From positions 117,058 through 137,057 of the IMG/VR virus record IMGVR_UViG_3300008262_006132: a stretch of DNA of 20,000 nucleotides; one strand, written 5' to 3'. Position 1 is the first letter of the stretch. Every line of letters starts with the position of its first letter. The notes beneath the pieces are model-generated. The model did not search any database, had not been told where the DNA came from, and saw nothing but the letters and a program-made list of their open reading frames with translations. This document shows, one piece after another, positions 2 to 16,744 of the stretch. A program made the position numbers and the translations under genes. This DNA is from an uncultured virus (IMG/VR IMGVR_UViG_3300008262_006132) (Duplodnaviria; Heunggongvirae; Uroviricota; Caudoviricetes).

Positions 2-3000
2 GATAAGATTATTGCCAAGGGTAATTATACGAAATCTCCTGGTGTGAGATGGATTCTCGGAGTTGGATCCTCGATGGTTGGATTCGGACTTGCCGCGGTA
101 ACACTAGGTGGAATAATAGTCGGTACTTTAGGTTTAGGAGGATTGGCCATCAAAGCTGGACTTTCTGCAGTTGAATCAATTGCAAAAACTATAGTGAAGA
201 CTGACAAAATATTAAGTGCTGGTCAATATACAAAGTACCCAGGTGCTGCTTGGGCTTTAACAGTTGGTTCAATTATTACAGCGTTTTCTACAGCAGTATT
301 ATTATTGGGTGCTGTTAGTTCAGGAGGAGGTCTCTTGCAAAAGTTGAGTCTTGGATTAGTAAAAAACCCATTAGAGTCAGGAATACAAGCAATAAAGAAA
401 ATAGCTCAAGCTATAGTAGATGTAGATAAAAAGTTAGCTGAAGGTAGTTATACTAAAGGTCCGAATCCTACTTGGGCAAAAGGCATTTCCGCATCACTCT
501 CTGCATTTTCACCAATTTACAGAATGTTATTAGCTGAAAAACTTATGAGTTTCATAGGTGGTGTCTCCGCTAAAGACTTTGCGCAAGCTATAAAAGTAAT
601 TTCTGGTGGAATAGTAGATTCCGCAAAACTCTTTGAAAGCGCAAAAGTTGCCTTTAAAAATGGACCACCAGTTACTTGGTCAAAAGGTGTAAGTGCTTCA
701 CTCGGTGCGTTCTCATCAATATACTCACTACTCGTAAAAGATAAAATTATGAGTATTTTTGGATCAGGAATCTCACCGAAAGATTTTTCTCAAGCTATTA
801 AGACAATTTCTGGTGGAATAGTAGATGCCGCAAAATTATTTGGAAATGCTGCTGTAGCGTTTAAGAACGGGCCACCAGTTGAGTGGGCTAAGGGTATCAG
901 TAAAGCACTTGGTGCTTTTTCATCTATCTATTCACTTCTAGTTAAGGATAGAATAATGAGTATATTTGGTTCTGGTGTATCACCTAAAGACTTCTCGCAA
1001 GCGATTAAGACAATTTCTGGTGGTATAGTAGATTCTGCAAAGTTATTTGACAAGGCGTCTGTTGCATTCAAGAATGGTCCACCAGTTGAATGGGCAAATG
1101 GAGTTAGTAAATCTTTAGGAGCATTCTCATCTATATACAAATTACTAGCAAGTAATTCTGGTTGGTGGAAAAGTGGTGTCGATCCAAAAATGTATGCACA
1201 AGCTATAGTTACAATTACGAATGGAATTGTGACTGCGGCAAAGGCTTTCGGGTCGGCGTCAGTAGCATTTAAAAATGGTCCACCTGTTGAGTGGGCTGAT
1301 GGGGTTGGTAAGTCACTCTCAGCGTTTCAGCCTATTTATGAACTATTATTAAAAAATTCTGGTTGGTGGAAGAGTGGTATAGATCCTAAAATGTATTCTC
1401 AAGCAATTGTGACTATAACTAGTGGTATAGTCACTGCTGCAAAGGCATTTGGTTCCGCATCGGTGGCGTTTAAAAATGGTCCACCGGTTGAATGGGCCGA
1501 TGGAGTTGGTAAGTCACTAGCTGCCTTTCAACCTATATATGAGTTATTACTTAAAAATACTGGATGGTGGAAAAGTAATATAGATCCAAAGAAATATGCA
1601 CAAGCTATAGTCACTATAACTGGTGGTATAATCACCGCGGCTAAATCATTTAGTCAGGCTTCTGTTGCATTTAAAAATGGACCACCAGTCCAGTGGGCCG
1701 AAGGTGTTGGTAAGGCTCTTTCAGCATTTCAACCGGTATATGAATTACTGGTTAGAAATTCAAGTTGGTGGAAAAGTTCAATAGATCCTAAGAAATACGC
1801 TGAAGCGATAGTAACGATTACTGGTGGAATTGTAACTGCTGGTAAAGCATTCGGAGCAGCGGCTGTTGCATTTAAAAATGGTCCACCAGTTCAGTGGGCT
1901 GAAGGTGTCGGTAAAGCACTTTCAGCGTTTCAACCAGTCTATGAGATGTTGGTAAGAAATGCTAGTTGGTGGAAAAGTTCAATAGATCCTAAGAAATATT
2001 CAGAGGCTATACGAACGATTAGTAGAGGAATTACTGATGCCGCAATAGTGCTGTCTACCGCATCTGTTGCATATAAATTTTATCCAACAGAACAGTGGGC
2101 TTCTGGTGTAAGTAGAGCACTTACTGCATTTCAACCAATTTATAAGATTTTACAGAAAGATTCTGGATGGCTCAGAAGTGGTATTTCTCCAAAGATGTAT
2201 GCCGATGCTATAAAGACAATTACAACTGGTATTCGAGACTCAGCGATGATTTTAGCACAAGCTTCGATTGCCTATAGAATGTTTCCAACAGTACAGTGGG
2301 CAAACGGTGTAAGTAGAGCTCTTAGTGTGTTCCAACCAATTTATAAAATTTTAGAAAAAGATTCTGGATGGTTGAGGTCTAATATATCACCAGAAAAGTA
2401 CGCTAAAGCAATCAAAACAATAACTACTGGTATTCGAGACTCAGCGATGATCTTGGCTTCAGCTTCTATTGCTTATAGAATGTTCCCAACAGTTCAGTGG
2501 GCAAACGGTGTGAGTAGAGCTCTTAGTACTTTTCAACCAATATATAAGATTCTACAAAAAGATTCGGGTTGGTTCAGAAGTAACATATCTCCAGAGAAAT
2601 ATGCAACAGCTATAAAAACTATTACAACTGGAATAAGAGACTCGGCTGTGATTTTAGCCTCAGCTTCTCTTGCTTATAGAATGTTCCCAACAACACAGTG
2701 GGCAGACGGAGTTAGTAAGGCTTTAAGTACCTTTCATCCAATATACAAGATATTACAAAAAGATTCAGGTTGGTTTAGAAGTAATATATCACCTGATAAG
2801 TATGCCGCGGCTATTCGTACTATTAGTCAAGGTATAGTTGATTCTGCTTTAATATTAGCAAAAGCAAAGTCCGCTTATAAGTCTTTCCCAACCACAGAAT
2901 GGGCAGATGGTGTTAGTAGAGCACTTTCAGCTTTTCAACCTATTTATACGATACTACAAAAAGATTCAGGATGGTTTAAAAGTGGAGTTTCAGTTGGTAA

Positions 3001-5785
3001 GTATAGTGAAGCTATAAAAACACTTAGTATGGGAATCGTAGATTCTGCGAACATACTTAGTAAGGGTTTGTATAAAATTTATCCAACAGTAAACTGGGTT
3101 ATGGGAATATCAGGAGCTTTTGCAATGATACCAGCACTGATTAAGAAAGTAAACAACATTGATTTCAAGGGACTTTCTAAAATTTGGATGATAAGTGATA
3201 GTATTTACAAACTCTCGATTGCATTCAAGGACGCTAAGTTTACAAGTTTTCCGAGTAAAAAATGGACAAGTGCTATTTCATCATCTTTTACTATGATGAT
3301 TAATCTTCTAAAGAGTATTGATAAAAGTATATCTATCACTTCACTACTTAGTGGTATTTTGAAGTCTAAATCCTTAGTTAATTACATTCTAGATTTGGAT
3401 AAGAAATTTAGCCTCGGTAAATTTAACAAGTTTCCAAACTCAAATTGGGTTAAAGGGTCTACAAAGTCTATTAGTGAATTTGCGAAGTTACTCAGTGAAC
3501 TTAATAAGTTGGTCTCTTTAGTAGGATTAAAGACTGGTCAATTCAAAATTTCGAGTATTCTGAAGTCTGTTTTGGATGTTGATAATCAGATATCTAGAGG
3601 TAAATTTAACAGAGTAATAAGTCAGAAATGGTCAAGTTCATTGAGAGTTTCAATACTAGAATTTTCAAACTTGTTTAAAAATGTAGATAAATTGATATCA
3701 ATAATTGACTTAAAACTTGGTCAAACTAAAGTTACTAGTATCATTAAATCTATTCTACAAATCGACCTACAAATTTCTAAAGGCAAATTTAATAAATTTA
3801 TTGATAATAAGTGGATCAAAGGCACAAAATCTTCAATTATAGAGTTCGGTGGATTATTCAAAACTATAGACAAATTAGTTTCAATAATTTCCTTAAAAAT
3901 CGGCCAGACAAAGGTTACAAGTATCATCAAGTCAATACTTCAAATCGATTCACAAGTTTCAAAGGGTAAATTTAATAAATTTATTGATAATAAGTGGATT
4001 AAAGGCACAAAACAGTCTGTTCTAGAGTTCGGAAAATTGTTTATTGATGTTAATAAGAATTTCTCTGTGACTTCTTTATTACTTGGTTTTAATAAAGTCA
4101 AAATGATTTTTGATAATATTATATGGATTGATAATAAAATATCTAGAGCTAAATTTGAGAAATCACCACCAACAAAATGGCTTACAAATACTAGAGATTC
4201 AATAGTTTATTACGGTAAATTGGCGATTGATTCTAATAAAATGTTCGGCACAGTGCCTCTAATAGCAGGTATCAAAAAGATTAAAACACTAGTAGATACA
4301 ATTTTGTGGGTCGATAAGACTCTATCAAAGGGTAAATATAATAGAGTTCCAAGTTTAAAATGGCTAAACGAATCTAAAAATGCAATTTTTACATATGGTA
4401 AGATAGCAATCGATTCAAATAAGATCTTCCCTCTGATTTCACTTATAGCTGGTATTAAGAAGGTTAAAATGATATCAGAGGCTATACTATGGGTTGATAA
4501 AACACTATCTAAGGGAAGTTACACTAAAGTGCCAACGCAGAATTGGTTGACACGTTCAAAAAGCACGATTTTTCAATACGGGAATCTAGCTATAGAATCA
4601 AATAAAAGGTTTGGAACAATTGGATTATTCTTAGGTCTGAAAAAAGTTAGAAATATTGCAGACACTTTAAAATATGTTTCGCTTGTAATTAGCGGTGGTA
4701 ATTATACTAAGTTTCCAAGCTTAGAATGGTCCAAGTCAGTTCCTGCGGCAATATCTGGCTTTATGAATCTACCGTTTAAGGGAATGTTTGGTCAATTTTT
4801 TGAAAGTATTTTCGGGGCTTCAGAAGATAGTAAGAAATCACAATTAGGAAAAATTGTAGATTTGATGTTATATGTTGATAAGAGATTTCAATCGGGTAAC
4901 TGGAAAAAGTTCCCAACTGTTGAGTGGGTTAAAGGTACAATTTTAGCTCTTCAGAAATTTAAAGATATAGTTTCTTTACTTAGTTTTGGTTCACTAAATA
5001 CTAAGATAATGACTGCATTCGGTGGTAAGAATCCACTTGTAAGCGCAGTTTCTAACATTGAAAAACTGGCACAGTCTTTTGATAAACTAGGAAATTCTAT
5101 GAAGAATTTCAGTCAATCAATAAAAACTCTAGATACAGAAAAACTCGCAGCGATTAAGAGTCTTTCTTCAAATGTTATTTTAATGTCATTGATGAATCCA
5201 GAGCAATTTGACGCGATGTTATCTAAGTTAGAAGAAAGATCTGGAGTTTTTGCTGACCTTATGAAGGATGTGCAAGACAAGAAAGGTACTTCTGCTAAAA
5301 CTACTGGTGCCCCTGGTACAGGTCAGAAAGTTGCAGGTGGTGGCGCAATGACTGATTTCAAGATGGTACCATCATCTACGGGAGCTAGAATGTCTGGTAA
5401 ATCAGATGATGCTAAAATGCTTGAGAAACTCGATGCTATGACAAGTCTACTCGCTGATATATCTAGTGTTGTTGGTAGTAAAGGAGCTTTGAAAACATAC
5501 CTTGGAAGTCTTAAAGAAGATGTTGATATAGGTGATGGTGGGTTCTCACTTTTTAGTAGATCTGATAAAAGAACCAAAAACATATTGAAAAAAGTTGGTG
5601 TATCACCAGATGGTATAAATATCTACTTATTCTCATATAAGTTTGATCCTACAGTAGTTTACCAAGGTGTAATTGCACAAGAGTTGCTTGGCACGAGATT
5701 TGAAAACTCAGTTGTACTTGATAAGTCTGGGTATTACGCAGTTGACTACTCAAAACTAGATGTTCAGTTTAAAAGAACAAATTGA
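2..5785 (+). CDS. Giant helical-repeat virion protein, tape-measure-like, with C-terminal Peptidase S74-type intramolecular chaperone domain; 5'-truncated by the window
   Basis: The frame is open from position 2 (DKIIAKGNYTKSPG...), so the GTG at 44 is not the true start. It has Gly/Ala-rich hydrophobic segments, about 20 tandem 61-69 aa repeats with a [FY]xxxPxxxW signature, and a C-terminal SDKRTK...GVIAQE...VDYSKL motif. Tape-measure function is an inference. Confidence 0.6.
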   Translation, partial: DKIIAKGNYTKSPGVRWILGVGSSMVGFGLAAVTLGGIIVGTLGLGGLAIKAGLSAVESIAKTIVKTDKILSAGQYTKYPGAAWALTVGSIITAFSTAVLLLGAVSSGGGLLQKLSLGLVKNPLESGIQAIKKIAQAIVDVDKKLAEGSYTKGPNPTWAKGISASLSAFSPIYRMLLAEKLMSFIGGVSAKDFAQAIKVISGGIVDSAKLFESAKVAFKNGPPVTWSKGVSASLGAFSSIYSLLVKDKIMSIFGSGISPKDFSQAIKTISGGIVDAAKLFGNAAVAFKNGPPVEWAKGISKALGAFSSIYSLLVKDRIMSIFGSGVSPKDFSQAIKTISGGIVDSAKLFDKASVAFKNGPPVEWANGVSKSLGAFSSIYKLLASNSGWWKSGVDPKMYAQAIVTITNGIVTAAKAFGSASVAFKNGPPVEWADGVGKSLSAFQPIYELLLKNSGWWKSGIDPKMYSQAIVTITSGIVTAAKAFGSASVAFKNGPPVEWADGVGKSLAAFQPIYELLLKNTGWWKSNIDPKKYAQAIVTITGGIITAAKSFSQASVAFKNGPPVQWAEGVGKALSAFQPVYELLVRNSSWWKSSIDPKKYAEAIVTITGGIVTAGKAFGAAAVAFKNGPPVQWAEGVGKALSAFQPVYEMLVRNASWWKSSIDPKKYSEAIRTISRGITDAAIVLSTASVAYKFYPTEQWASGVSRALTAFQPIYKILQKDSGWLRSGISPKMYADAIKTITTGIRDSAMILAQASIAYRMFPTVQWANGVSRALSVFQPIYKILEKDSGWLRSNISPEKYAKAIKTITTGIRDSAMILASASIAYRMFPTVQWANGVSRALSTFQPIYKILQKDSGWFRSNISPEKYATAIKTITTGIRDSAVILASASLAYRMFPTTQWADGVSKALSTFHPIYKILQKDSGWFRSNISPDKYAAAIRTISQGIVDSALILAKAKSAYKSFPTTEWADGVSRALSAFQPIYTILQKDSGWFKSGVSVGKYSEAIKTLSMGIVDSANILSKGLYKIYPTVNWVMGISGAFAMIPALIKKVNNIDFKGLSKIWMISDSIYKLSIAFKDAKFTSFPSKKWTSAISSSFTMMINLLKSIDKSISITSLLSGILKSKSLVNYILDLDKKFSLGKFNKFPNSNWVKGSTKSISEFAKLLSELNKLVSLVGLKTGQFKISSILKSVLDVDNQISRGKFNRVISQKWSSSLRVSILEFSNLFKNVDKLISIIDLKLGQTKVTSIIKSILQIDLQISKGKFNKFIDNKWIKGTKSSIIEFGGLFKTIDKLVSIISLKIGQTKVTSIIKSILQIDSQVSKGKFNKFIDNKWIKGTKQSVLEFGKLFIDVNKNFSVTSLLLGFNKVKMIFDNIIWIDNKISRAKFEKSPPTKWLTNTRDSIVYYGKLAIDSNKMFGTVPLIAGIKKIKTLVDTILWVDKTLSKGKYNRVPSLKWLNESKNAIFTYGKIAIDSNKIFPLISLIAGIKKVKMISEAILWVDKTLSKGSYTKVPTQNWLTRSKSTIFQYGNLAIESNKRFGTIGLFLGLKKVRNIADTLKYVSLVISGGNYTKFPSLEWSKSVPAAISGFMNLPFKGMFGQFFESIFGASEDSKKSQLGKIVDLMLYVDKRFQSGNWKKFPTVEWVKGTILALQKFKDIVSLLSFGSLNTKIMTAFGGKNPLVSAVSNIEKLAQSFDKLGNSMKNFSQSIKTLDTEKLAAIKSLSSNVILMSLMNPEQFDAMLSKLEERSGVFADLMKDVQDKKGTSAKTTGAPGTGQKVAGGGAMTDFKMVPSSTGARMSGKSDDAKMLEKLDAMTSLLADISSVVGSKGALKTYLGSLKEDVDIGDGGFSLFSRSDKRTKNILKKVGVSPDGINIYLFSYKFDPTVVYQGVIAQELLGTRFENSVVLDKSGYYAVDYSKLDVQFKRTN
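662..3080 (+). repeat. Coding tandem repeat array A, 67-69 aa units (FKNGPPVEWA / YRMFPTVQWA ... GWWKS)
   Basis: Equivalent codons at 662, 869, 1076 (207-nt period), then 1277, 1478, 1679, 1880, 2081, 2282, 2483, 2684, 2885 (201-nt period), then 3080. Confidence 0.95.
3416..4930 (+). repeat. Coding tandem repeat array B, 61 aa units (SKGKFNK..P...W)
   Basis: Equivalent codons at 3416, 3599, 3782, 3965, 4148, 4331, 4514, 4697 (183-nt period), with a last longer unit at 4895. Confidence 0.9.
5561..5785 (+). other. Peptidase S74 / intramolecular chaperone autocleavage-like domain
   Basis: R|SDKRTKNILKKVG...IYLFSYK...QGVIAQEL...GYYAVDYSKL matches the SDxRxK, GxIAQE and VDY hallmarks of the endosialidase-chaperone family. 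Confidence 0.8.
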
Positions 5786-13269: not shown

Positions 13270-15489
13270 TTATTTTTTGAAAGGATTATCCCATTTTCCA
13301 AGAGAAATATCATTTTTATATCTATTATTAAATTTAGATTTTCTTCTTATATCTAAAAGCTGTTTATAGTCAACGCCTTCTATAAATTCATTGTTATTTA
13401 ATATTTGATCTATAAACAATCTTAGTTGACTATCACTAAGACTATCAATGTAATCTTCTATTATTTGTCTAAACTCATTTTTTTGAAAAATGGCACACAT
13501 GTCAATTATTGTCATAACAGTGTCATCATGAGATGATCCATCTGCCGCGTACTTCACATTACCAGCACTTGTTGTATGTTTGATGAAAGTAGTTATTTCT
13601 TGAATATTGATTTCATTTGTAATTATTATAGATTTGTCTTCCATTTTATCTTGATACTCTTTAACAAGTAAATTTTTATTTTCACCGACTTTTAATCCTA
13701 TTTTTTCTTCAATCGCATCAGCTCTATGTTTAAATCTGAAAAATATTGAAGAACCATAGTTATTTCGTCCATCAAATACATTTGGTAAATGAGCTAAGAG
13801 TTCATTTCCATAGGTATTGATTTCTAAAACTATTTTAACGTTTTCTGGATTGAAGTATTCAAATGCAATCAAATAAAGAAGTTCGGATAGCTGTTGAACG
13901 GAAATTAAATTACTTCTAAAAATTCCAATCTGTTCAAGTCTTCCGAAATCGACAATAGATTTGTATTTATGCTTTTGTTGTTCAATCAATTCACTTGGCT
14001 TTATACCAACTTTAAAAATATTCACTACTGTGCTGTCTTGACCTAGACCTTCTGCCACATCCACTGAAATAATAATTTTATAATTTTTTCTTTGGATTGG
14101 TATGTAAATATCTTCATCTTGACACCATTTTAAATCTTGATAAGAAAATTTCAACTTTCCTTCAAACTCATCAATATTTTCCCACTCATAAAGTTTTTTA
14201 CCTCTTGTCATCTCATCAATCAAGGTCTCACTTAATAAGCTTCTTGATGAGTTTATGAACCTAAGATCATATTCTTGATTAAAAGCTTCTTCACCACCTA
14301 TATCTTTAATAGTTTCCTTTTTCCAAGTTGTGATGTCTGAAAATTCGAGTAGCCTAATTTCGTTAAATGATTCCGCAAGTAAGTCTTCCTCTGAACAATC
14401 ACTGTTGTTCAAGGTCGTTATTACCCATTTTTTTAATTCATCATTATATTTTAAACTATGTTCGTTCTTTGGGTATTGTTGTTTTAAGTAATTTAGTAAC
14501 TCCTCTTTATCAATATCTAATTCTTTAACTTTCTTGGGATTAAGTCTTATATAAGTAGAAAATCTTTTTGGCACTTGCCACCAATAAACCCTTTTAGCCA
14601 TATATGATGATTTTTCCCCTTCTGGCTTTTCGGCCTCGGTTAATAATTTGTGAAATAGATTAAAACCATTAGGAGTAGATGTTATAATAATTTTAGAATT
14701 TTCTATGTTTGACACAGTTGGAAAAACAGATTTATAAAACTTATCAGCTATATTATCTGGTAAGTAAGCAAACTCATCTAGATATAAAAAGTCAGCAGTT
14801 TGACCAATAGAGGATGTTTTTGTAGTCGCGAAGCCTTTGATCCTACTTTTATTTTCAAAAACCATAAATTTTTGATTCCAGTTAATTATTCCTTGTTGTA
14901 AGAAAAAGGGTAGTCTTTGATAAATTTCTCTTATTTTATCCAAAACTTCAACAGCTGTATCCAATTTATTAGCAGTCACAAGAACATTCTTGTTATTATT
15001 AAAAAGAACATAATGTAGCATCATTATTGAAGAACAAATCGTATTATGAGATAGAATTCCGTTTGTATAAAGTCTGTGATTACGATGATCAACAGTTGCA
15101 TCAAACATAGATGTTTTGAATTTTATCTTTTGCACACTTATTACCTTTTCTTCTCCAGTTTGAGTTTGTAGAATATCACCAACTTTTAGCTCTTTTACGA
15201 ATATTTCCTTGAAATTACTACCAAAAACTATATGATTGTCTGCACTCTCTAAATGAAAATTACTCGTTTTAACTACCCAATGAGTGTATGGTTGTGTGAG
15301 ATGTATTTTTGATACGGGTTCGTATCCAGTATCACTTAAAACCTTCAAGTTACTTGTGTTTAGAGAATTAATAATCTTTTTTGATATATCATCCTCATTT
15401 AGACTTGTACCTCTATACTCAATTTTTTCTATAAATTGAATCAATGAATAAAGTAATTTGATTGTTACTGATTTAAAAAATTTAAACAT
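13270..15489 (-). CDS. terL: Large terminase C-terminal fragment fused to split intein IntC (aa 1-149 intein; aa 150-739 rest of ATPase plus nuclease)
   Basis: T4 gp17-like motifs after HN|T: Walker B FLYLDEFA, coupling motif ITSTPNG, FNQEY, nuclease acidic motifs VDVAEGLGQD, LEINTYG, HDDTVM. Confidence 0.95.
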   Translation of the reverse strand: MFKFFKSVTIKLLYSLIQFIEKIEYRGTSLNEDDISKKIINSLNTSNLKVLSDTGYEPVSKIHLTQPYTHWVVKTSNFHLESADNHIVFGSNFKEIFVKELKVGDILQTQTGEEKVISVQKIKFKTSMFDATVDHRNHRLYTNGILSHNTICSSIMMLHYVLFNNNKNVLVTANKLDTAVEVLDKIREIYQRLPFFLQQGIINWNQKFMVFENKSRIKGFATTKTSSIGQTADFLYLDEFAYLPDNIADKFYKSVFPTVSNIENSKIIITSTPNGFNLFHKLLTEAEKPEGEKSSYMAKRVYWWQVPKRFSTYIRLNPKKVKELDIDKEELLNYLKQQYPKNEHSLKYNDELKKWVITTLNNSDCSEEDLLAESFNEIRLLEFSDITTWKKETIKDIGGEEAFNQEYDLRFINSSRSLLSETLIDEMTRGKKLYEWENIDEFEGKLKFSYQDLKWCQDEDIYIPIQRKNYKIIISVDVAEGLGQDSTVVNIFKVGIKPSELIEQQKHKYKSIVDFGRLEQIGIFRSNLISVQQLSELLYLIAFEYFNPENVKIVLEINTYGNELLAHLPNVFDGRNNYGSSIFFRFKHRADAIEEKIGLKVGENKNLLVKEYQDKMEDKSIIITNEINIQEITTFIKHTTSAGNVKYAADGSSHDDTVMTIIDMCAIFQKNEFRQIIEDYIDSLSDSQLRLFIDQILNNNEFIEGVDYKQLLDIRRKSKFNNRYKNDISLGKWDNPFKK
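15043..15489 (-). mobile_element. Split intein C-fragment (IntC, 149 aa)
   Basis: Block B-like LESADNHIVF, LKVGD motif, block F MFDATVD, block G LYTNGILSHN followed by Thr(+1). No N-terminal Cys/Ser block A and no endonuclease domain. Confidence 0.93.
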
Positions 15490-15566
15490 GATTTTTTTTA
15501 TATTTTTTCATTATTATCTCAAATAAATCATTTATCTTCCTATCAAGTTGGGAAACGTTTTAAATA

Positions 15567-16067
15567 TTATTTATCGAGAAGGTATATAAGGTCGTAAATT
15601 TTTATTTTTATTTTTTCTAAAATTGTTAATTTTCTTTGTCTCGATAATATATAGTAATATAATTTTCCAAATCTTATCTCTAATAACTCATCATTTAATC
15701 CAACAAAAACCTTCGTATTAAAGGAAAAACACTTACCAATCTGACGACTTGCCATAAGTATATTAAATCTATTATTAAAGAAGTTATCTAGTATTTCTTT
15801 TTGATAATCTCTTAGAGGTATTATAATTGGTTGACCTTCTTCTCCTTTGATGTAACAATATGTTGACGCGAAGTAGTGAATGTCGAGTGCACACCTAATA
15901 TACTCTTCTTGCTCTTCAGGTGACATTTTGAAAACAAGTCCTGATGTTCTAAGACCCACTACCTTTTCAAAAAATGGATTTTCTAATCTACTGAGTACAA
16001 ATCCATTATTTATTCGCTCAGTAGCATCTTCAATCATTTTTGAATCCCAAATAATTTGCCTAGACAT
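15567..16067 (-). CDS. terL: Large terminase N-terminal fragment fused to split intein IntN (aa 1-112 extein; aa 113-166 intein)
   Basis: Adenine-binding motif LRDYQKE and Walker A start MASRQIGK, followed immediately by CFSFNTKV (intein block A) in place of the expected Thr. Confidence 0.95.
   Translation of the reverse strand: MSRQIIWDSKMIEDATERINNGFVLSRLENPFFEKVVGLRTSGLVFKMSPEEQEEYIRCALDIHYFASTYCYIKGEEGQPIIIPLRDYQKEILDNFFNNRFNILMASRQIGKCFSFNTKVFVGLNDELLEIRFGKLYYYILSRQRKLTILEKIKIKIYDLIYLLDK
15570..15731 (-). mobile_element. Split intein N-fragment (IntN, 54 aa)
   Basis: Cys1 codon at 15729-15731. CFSFNTKVFV...EIRFGKLY is typical of block A and the following strand-helix. Confidence 0.9.
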
Positions 16068-16129: not shown

Positions 16130-16744
16130 ATGGGTACTATGTCTAAATCAGAAAAAGAGCATAATCGTATTAACGATGAGTTTGATATGATACAAGAAGA
16201 GAATAGAGATTTTGATATTTCTAGTCACTTGGCCAAAGTTGACGACTTACCAGATTTAGGTCAAATCGAATTATATGACTATGACTCAGATCTTACAGTC
16301 GTTGCTCAAAAAGGATTAGAAGTGATTGAATCACTTGTAGATTTATACCTTAGTGAGTTTGGTGATTTAAAAAACCATCCATATATCAGAAATAAAGTAA
16401 AAGAAGATGCGATGGTTTACGCTGAGACATTATTTTTATCTAAAATGACTAGAAAAAACTTTTTAACGCAGTTAAGACAGATTGATAATGGTGACAATTC
16501 TGCTAGAATGCATGAAGTAATAAACCAAACGATCAGAGAAGTTCGAGAGAATTCTAAATTTTCATCTTCTCAAAGGACCGAGTTAGAGCAATATTACAAG
16601 ACATTTAGAGAGGATTTAAGTGAAGTCGCTTCTACTATGAAGAAAGATGGTGGTTCTAATTCTGGTGGAGACGATGGAACAATAGTTGATAGTAAGAAAT
16701 TAAATGACTTAATTTCCGAGGCTATGAAGAAGAAAAAGAGTTAA
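16130..16744 (+). CDS. terS: Probable small terminase subunit (T4 gp16-like)
   Basis: Adjacent to terL and predicted helical. DDLPDLGQIELY, DNSARMHEVINQ and TIVDSKKLNDLI resemble, in the same order, gp16 segments as I recall them (SDLPGI..., DSPRHMEVF, TVFMGSPTELMD). Confidence 0.6.
   Translation: MGTMSKSEKEHNRINDEFDMIQEENRDFDISSHLAKVDDLPDLGQIELYDYDSDLTVVAQKGLEVIESLVDLYLSEFGDLKNHPYIRNKVKEDAMVYAETLFLSKMTRKNFLTQLRQIDNGDNSARMHEVINQTIREVRENSKFSSSQRTELEQYYKTFREDLSEVASTMKKDGGSNSGGDDGTIVDSKKLNDLISEAMKKKKS

Follow-up and report, generated by a model that had tools for sequence, protein, structure and literature searches.

How do the separately made halves of a split intein find each other? The question is raised by a 20,000-nucleotide stretch of DNA (the window) from the uncultured Caudoviricetes record IMGVR_UViG_3300008262_006132, in which, judged from the reading frames, the DNA-packaging motor (the terminase large subunit, TerL) is encoded by two separate genes, each with one half of an intein. 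The prevailing view is that the fragments of natural split inteins come together solely by means of the Hint fold. A sequence-only reading of the window had proposed that mutually similar amphipathic helices are appended to the free ends of both the N-terminal half (IntN) and the C-terminal half (IntC), where they might form a pseudosymmetric docking module or a membrane- or partner-binding switch. Comparison with relatives and structure modeling make it likely that the two helices form a heterodimeric clasp that aids association of the fragments. The helices would pack antiparallel into a hydrophobic, charge-complemented unit, helping the separately made precursors to associate.

Both intein halves carry a conserved helical extension

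The two halves lie in minus-strand open reading frames (ORFs) at 16067-15567 (166 amino acids [aa]) and 15489-13270 (739 aa), 77 nucleotides (nt) apart. IntN comprises 54 aa from Cys1, and IntC comprises 149 aa ending in His-Asn ahead of Thr+1. Both extensions were found where they had been placed, at IntN residues 34 to 54 (minus strand, 15632-15570) and IntC residues 1 to 25 (minus strand, 15489-15415). The predicted helix spans residues 2 to 24 in IntC (predicted local distance difference test [pLDDT] of 87 to 93), and the equivalents of both helices are also predicted in a one-piece relative described below.

As judged by eye, the IntN helix ends 118 of the 120 IntN precursors listed (278 found), the other 2 being intein-free homologues. 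The whole IntC helix starts 116 of the 120 IntC precursors listed (290 found); the gene calls of the remaining 4 begin at position 16. Across 46 paired loci, K42 was retained in 45, Y46 in 45, I17 in 45, E21 in 46, and E24 in 43, and in a set of 56 pairs K42, I17, and E21 were invariant (56/56; Y46, 51/56). The ratio of nonsynonymous to synonymous change (dN/dS), counted on alignment columns for 66 close pairs among 32 loci, was 0.11 for the IntN helix (residues 36 to 52), 0.18 for IntC residues 13 to 25, and 0.16 for the core, values that are rough because synonymous sites are near saturation. By these measures, both helices are coding and under purifying selection about as strong as that on the core. 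They are also amphipathic, with median hydrophobic moments of 0.40 and 0.49 (36/46 loci).

Translation of IntC starts upstream of its helix, most likely at the ATG at 15489. The start codon ahead of the helix is ATG in 42 of the 46 loci and GTG in 4, lying 0 to 18 codons past an in-frame stop; the next in-frame ATG of the window IntC is M128, and 16 of the 46 loci have no ATG, GTG, or TTG at positions 26 to 50.

Predicted antiparallel packing of the two helices

The modeled complex of IntN and IntC scored 0.91, compared with 0.01 for the best of three controls. Of 157 solved complexes, 116 attain the pass mark, as do 2 of 215 mismatched pairs, counts that are roughly valid with our own alignments. 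Model runs agreed on 100% of contacts, with a partner pLDDT of 92. In this model the helices touch each other and are packed antiparallel, through an interface that includes IntC residues 6, 9-10, 13-14, 16-17, 20-21, and 23-24 and IntN residues 36, 38-39, 41-42, 45-46, 48-49, and 52-53. The lowest-error pairs include IntC 13 with IntN 45 and 49, IntC 16 with IntN 45, IntC 17 with IntN 42, 45, and 46, and IntC 20 with IntN 42 and 45, and the series 13-49, 17-45, 20-42 indicates the antiparallel packing. I45, Y46, I49, and K42 of IntN are thus predicted to pack on L13, L16, I17, and I20 of IntC, with the IntN helix ending beside the start of its IntC partner; a small helical bundle is probably completed by the extended helix alpha1 of the Hint core.

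Charge may contribute as well. IntN residues 30 to 47 carry a net charge of +4 in the window (median, +3) and IntC residues 18 to 34 one of -3 (median, -4), and these basic and acidic segments would steer the encounter, with K42 near E21. Within the complex model, IntN residues 1-14, 16, and 21-29 touch IntC; the clasp would add buried surface to a short IntN that is otherwise bound through two strands and one helix.

The distribution of the helices is consistent with pairing. From 202 rows, once loci lacking an IntN in range had been dropped, there remained 102 nonredundant split loci for which the two halves were in range; of these, 56 had both helices, 46 had neither, and none had only one. 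Both helices also occur in 14 one-piece alleles, 11 among the best 150 representatives in a profile search (see below) and 3 at contig loci. From Y46 to I17, the link is 14 to 18 residues in 10 of those 11 and 31 in one, compared with 24 residues between the same positions on the window's two free ends. AlphaFold2 modeled one such allele with helices at residues 37 to 52 and 55 to 68 joined by a 2-residue turn (pLDDT 97), from an imperfect alignment that misplaced the tails of IntN fragments onto the IntC helix columns. Solved inteins align to at most 149 of the 194 residues of this relative, and the fold search turned up no solved intein with the hairpin, although absence there is not exclusion.

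Several observations weigh against a clasp that aids association. The complex score covers whole intein halves and does not isolate the helices, and since these are halves of a known fold (Cat, PDB 6dsl; VidaL, PDB 6vgv), the pass may reflect likeness to solved structures. The strict co-occurrence comes close to being a single evolutionary event, with 4 label changes over the 146 tree rows, and 46 of the 56 helix pairs had trained the profiles that scored them. A covariation check gave no excess of mutual information at the predicted contacts, the measure being low powered with 46 rows and nearly invariant contact columns. The distal IntC helix (residues 2 to 12) is less constrained, with a dN/dS of 0.44. 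Lastly, a split at this place without helices is seen in 46 of the 102 loci and in 70 of the top 150 representatives, so the clasp is not required; as these sequences have it, the clasp is an add-on rather than a requirement of this split. The proposed docking module is supported in its conservation, co-occurrence, predicted contact, and upstream start; its self-likeness is weak and covariation is silent.

The helices resemble each other weakly

The helices had been described as mutually similar, a claim that holds weakly at best: for the window pair the similarity is not significant, and across the family it is borderline. Aligned without gaps, the window pair scored at best 25 in BLOSUM62 (P = 0.10 against shuffles; P = 0.24 when the shuffles preserved the hydrophobic pattern). 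In the register of the sequence-only reading, the other 45 loci averaged 7.5, compared with 20 for the window, and 4 of the 45 reached the window score. Profile tests at the best offset gave P values of 0.25 and 0.36. At the fixed register, 55 other pairs gave P values of 0.007 and 0.014 (hhalign nulls, 0.013 and 0.05), which are optimistic because a family member had served to choose the register. Whole-fragment hhalign gave an E value of 0.069, and there was no sign of concerted evolution of the helices, the helices of a cognate pair being no more similar than those paired at random (P = 0.51).

The motif YxL[IL]xxx[DE]K occurs in only 2 of 46 IntN and 8 of 46 IntC helices, and self-similarity as a conserved motif was rejected. 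The pattern common to both helices is L-Y-x-x-[LI]-x-x-[LI]-E, and their invariant residues differ (K42 in IntN; I17 and E21 in IntC). Such likeness may stem from duplication, or two aliphatic stripes may have converged in coding sequence that is AT-rich. The term "pseudosymmetric" suits the predicted antiparallel geometry, and the interface stripes coincide in the proposed register; it suits the sequences less well. Given the weak likeness and the different invariant residues, the helix pair is best described as a heterodimer.

The intein core and its nearest known relatives

The marks of a class 1 intein are present: Cys1, the catalytic residues, a predicted Hint fold, and exact absence in intein-free alleles. 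Cys1, H86 (block B), D130 (block F), H148, and N149 are invariant in 46/46 loci, and the +1 nucleophile is Thr; block B reads ADNH, in place of what we take to be the usual TxxH. In many intein-free relatives RQxGK runs directly into T[IV], and one contig skips precisely 15043-15731, an intein-free allele; the split intein thus interrupts Walker A (SRQIGK/T, the slash marking the insertion site). The two-piece intein would join the terminase halves by trans-splicing, rebuilding Walker A, and the clasp would leave with the excised intein.

Modeled alone, IntC folds as a Hint domain (pLDDT 92.5). Foldseek with this model returned VidaL (E = 1e-8; root mean square deviation [RMSD], 1.0 Å) and Cat (E = 2e-6), and its top rows were all Hint structures. 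Pfam and NCBIfam matches lie below their cutoffs, and IntN alone had no match in Pfam, NCBIfam, PDB sequences, or the ESM Atlas (best 0.81, chance level).

The core boundaries needed adjustment. The IntN core had been read as about 25 aa (CFSF...GKLY), and in the model of the one-piece relative, strands at residues 7 to 12 and 15 to 20 are followed by helix alpha1 at residues 21 to 32, which takes the core on to about residue 32. The break comes after alpha1: this helix precedes the helix insert, and IntN of helix-less relatives mostly ends at 31 to 42 aa. The IntC core does not begin at NLKVLSDTG, as had been suggested, but earlier, at about K37-K38; its first strand spans residues 39 to 52, K38 is invariant (46/46), and helix-less relatives begin at profile positions 31 to 39. 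IntC owes its 149-aa length to the added helix.

Natural atypical IntN fragments are reported to span 15 to 37 aa, with breaks at S1 (VidaL, PolB16) or S2 (AceL, GOS) (PMC13014065); PolB16 is described in a further paper (PMC10189870). At 54 aa in the window and 51 to 62 aa in helix-bearing loci, IntN lies outside this range. AceL-TerL, GOS-TerL, and Cat (PDB 6dsl), the consensus of these two, share with the window a phage terminase host and an S2 break after alpha1 (PMC13014065). Their IntN measures 25 to 37 aa, compared with 54 aa here. The +1 residue is Cys in this TerL trio (PMC11766414) and Thr in the window. The window intein resembles an S2-type split intein but falls outside the AceL/GOS/Cat group in length and junction. 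In sequence, the best-matching intein for the window IntC is CatC (E = 5.5e-8), the match beginning at residue 41, and the 6dsl match leaves IntC residues 1 to 40 uncovered. We take the AceL, GOS, and Cat inteins to sit at another TerL site.

The best fold match is VidaL (PDB 6vgv/6vgw; VIA Z 18.5, RMSD 1.6, 135 aligned), also a natural split intein with a short IntN; its 145-residue chain leaves no room for a hairpin, and it differs from the window in its S1 split and 16-aa IntN (PMC13014065). The gene layout is that of the fractured genes of Dassa et al. (2009), two host ORFs with an intein half each; there, a free-standing endonuclease lies between the halves, and the window is without one (PMC2677866). 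Next to the 149-aa window IntC, 122 aa would fit the helix-less type, possibly at the same site (PMC2677866).

At the same site (RQxGK/T), cultured Ackermannviridae such as Klebsiella phage Magnus and Shigella phage Ag3 carry a TerL mini-intein with ~35% identity to IntC, which is in one piece (159 aa) and has no helical hairpin. Engineered split inteins assisted by coiled coils or dimerizers offer a functional parallel, in that an added dimerization module raises association (FKBP/FRB; PMC11766414); those modules are artificial, whereas the module in the window is natural and fixed at the break. Helices of this kind on natural split inteins were not found described in the literature searched, although the GOS-TerL and Cat papers or their supplements may mention them. 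What seems new here, from sequence comparison, is a conserved natural helix pair on split intein ends and an IntN longer than the published range.

Distribution and history

An IntC profile run against 1.84 billion representatives gave 1,795 matches, of which the best 150 were examined: 49 were split with the helix, 70 were split without it, and 31 were internal matches. Of the internal matches, 11 were terminase inteins in one piece that carried both helices, 13 were one-piece inteins lacking them, and 7 were unclear. No longer fused forms were found by a search with the IntN region, a weak test; the IntC profile search found them. All helix-bearing hosts seen were terminases, whereas helix-less members also occupy the P-loops of other host proteins, presumably SbcC-, helicase-, Clp-, and RecA-like ones, as named from the flanks. 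The helix-less family (L165-L244) has the same split point in many P-loop hosts, and an estimated ~1,300 stretches in the viral collection match its patterns.

A quick tree of the common core (112 columns) holds 146 rows and has 7 starred forks; from the 150 representatives, 5 truncated or short-match rows and 6 unclear ones were left out. In this weak tree, helix-bearing rows mostly cluster (SH-aLRT, 81 to 87) and one-piece rows are scattered singly, with 23 label changes for 23 rows. The tree leans weakly toward helix gain in a split ancestor followed by repeated refusion. An endonuclease gene may have broken a helix-less intein after alpha1, the helix pair may then have arisen a single time, in one terminase lineage, and later some of its alleles, several in number, may have fused again into one piece; in the reverse order, the hairpin would have come first and its tip would have been cut. 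That the helices were "appended" to free ends is thus one of two possible histories, one-piece alleles carrying the same pair as a hairpin.

In LR756501.1, a 735-kb phage, a distance of 12.4 kb separates the two terminase halves (L319:13926-14468 and L319:26843), and both helices are kept. The intervening DNA has 10 unrelated ORFs of at least 90 aa, on both strands, and the IntC of this phage ends in LNLN/T, without the penultimate His. LR756500.1 (L316:757-4345) has a helix-bearing split intein with a 366-aa endonuclease-like ORF, and its IntC ends in SSQ/T, with a terminal Gln and no His.

A search of 11 helix-bearing records gave a second match in 4, and 2 of these were a helix-less member in a helicase-like gene. 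As many as three members also occur in helix-less records, so coexistence does not depend on the clasp. The window's own virus record, 44% complete, yielded only one intein-family member. In P0243, a second intein-like stretch that starts with Cys directly follows SHN (stacked inteins), TerL-C proteins of the P0161 type (1,068 to 1,113 aa) have a further intein Pfam match, and G013:C1:132546-134240 has three matches in one frame.

Alternative explanations

The reverse history would make the helix pair a hairpin insert of a one-piece intein, later cut at its tip, that packs within the folded complex and is kept for stability, with little role in capture or specificity. It can draw on the 14 one-piece alleles with both helices, whose links are nearly all as short as 14 to 18 residues, on the helix-less one-piece inteins at the same site in cultured Ackermannviridae, and on the frequency of helix-less split forms. 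We nevertheless consider it unlikely: one-piece alleles are scattered singly among split ones, albeit in a quick tree with few supported forks; P0251 seems to keep both complete free ends plus a short linker, as refusion predicts; and in split loci the helices are under selection as strong as the core is.

A role mainly in shielding the isolated precursors (masking hydrophobic surfaces, stopping aggregation or premature cleavage, or self-associating), with the helices swapping on assembly, seems improbable. IntC alone is modeled with a confident helix, its conserved hydrophobic positions 5, 8, 12, and 19 fall outside the interchain contact list, and the weak helix likeness would permit self-pairing, yet strict co-occurrence, complementary charge, and short one-piece links all point to mutual pairing. 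We give very little credence to helices that bind a membrane or another protein and so gate the time of splicing. Both helices are amphipathic, and the helix-bearing hosts seen are all terminases. A transmembrane segment calls for a mean hydropathy of at least 1.6 over 19 residues, a value reached by 6 of 46 IntC helices but by none of 46 IntN helices; the window helices reach 1.13 and 0.84, with no transmembrane segment and hence no support for the membrane switch of the sequence-only reading. The main hydrophobic stripes are taken up by the predicted interface, and no partner is indicated. The heterodimeric clasp remains the reading that we favor.

Genomic context

The window DNA is AT-rich and comes from a 137-kb record, and the virus is likely a large phage. 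The 739-aa ORF matches PF03237 from residue 150 on (Table 1).

TABLE 1 Features of the split terminase intein in the window
Feature	Coordinates	Strand	Remarks
TerL N-extein, 112 aa	15732..16067	-	Ends at Walker A ...SRQIGK; intein-free alleles RQxGK straight into T
IntN Hint core, residues 1-32	15636..15731	-	Cys1, two strands, extended helix alpha1
IntN putative clasp helix, residues 36-54	15570..15626	-	K42, I/L45, Y46, I/L49, L52
Intergenic gap, 77 nt	15490..15566	.	Endonuclease-like ORF at this place in most relatives
IntC putative clasp helix, residues 1-25	15415..15489	-	L13, L16, I17, I20, E21, E24
Acidic linker, IntC residues 26-37	15379..15414	-	D34 42/46, K37 45/46
IntC Hint core, residues 38-149	15043..15378	-	His86, Asp130, His148-Asn149
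TerL C-extein, 590 aa	13270..15042	-	Starts with Thr+1; PF03237 Terminase_6N, E 4.9e-11

Between the halves, 33 of 46 nonredundant relatives have an ORF of 318 to 358 aa, and one of two such ORFs scanned matched DUF559 (E = 1.5e-6). A free-standing endonuclease is absent from the 77-nt gap of the window, which by this comparison has lost the gene. Behind IntN, many relatives have a DNA element (..TTG..GGAAGCCAT..TAATATATA) in any frame (strict pattern, 19/46), of which the gap keeps the first part, CCAACTTGATAGGAAG, at 15545-15525 (minus strand). This element is possibly the promoter of the lost endonuclease gene, and it would explain the recurring RKP ends of IntN. The predicted RNA fold of the 77-nt gap was unremarkable (z = 0.31). 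An intein-free allele (L006) with 95% identity to the N-extein shares its collection prefix with an identical split allele (L001/L002), so empty and occupied alleles may coexist.

Elsewhere in the window, a 1,913-aa ORF at 44-5785 (plus strand) has many imperfect repeats with KNGPP..W and FPT..W and looks tape measure-like, and a 204-aa ORF at 16130-16744 (plus strand) is divergent from TerL-N, all of its Pfam matches being subthreshold. At most 5% of words were present in the sequencing runs, which were uninformative on expression.

Implications

The split layout accounts for the annotation of these terminases as a truncated TerL and a separate hypothetical protein. We tentatively suggest, with more doubt than for the clasp itself, that the clasp evolved on the broken ends after gene fracture, providing affinity and partner choice, letting the genes drift apart, and yielding a portable, orthogonal trans-splicing module. 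Partner choice might then, somewhat speculatively, be exercised against related split inteins of the same genome, such as the helix-less helicase-like member in at least 2 of the 11 helix-bearing records, and drift might conceivably be what separated the halves by 12.4 kb in the 735-kb phage. The widespread helix-pair lineage, together with its helix-less split and one-piece relatives, forms a series for studying the way in which fragments meet and the steps by which a fractured gene settles into a stable system of two genes. Should the clasp set affinity or specificity, it would also supply new orthogonal pairs for protein ligation.

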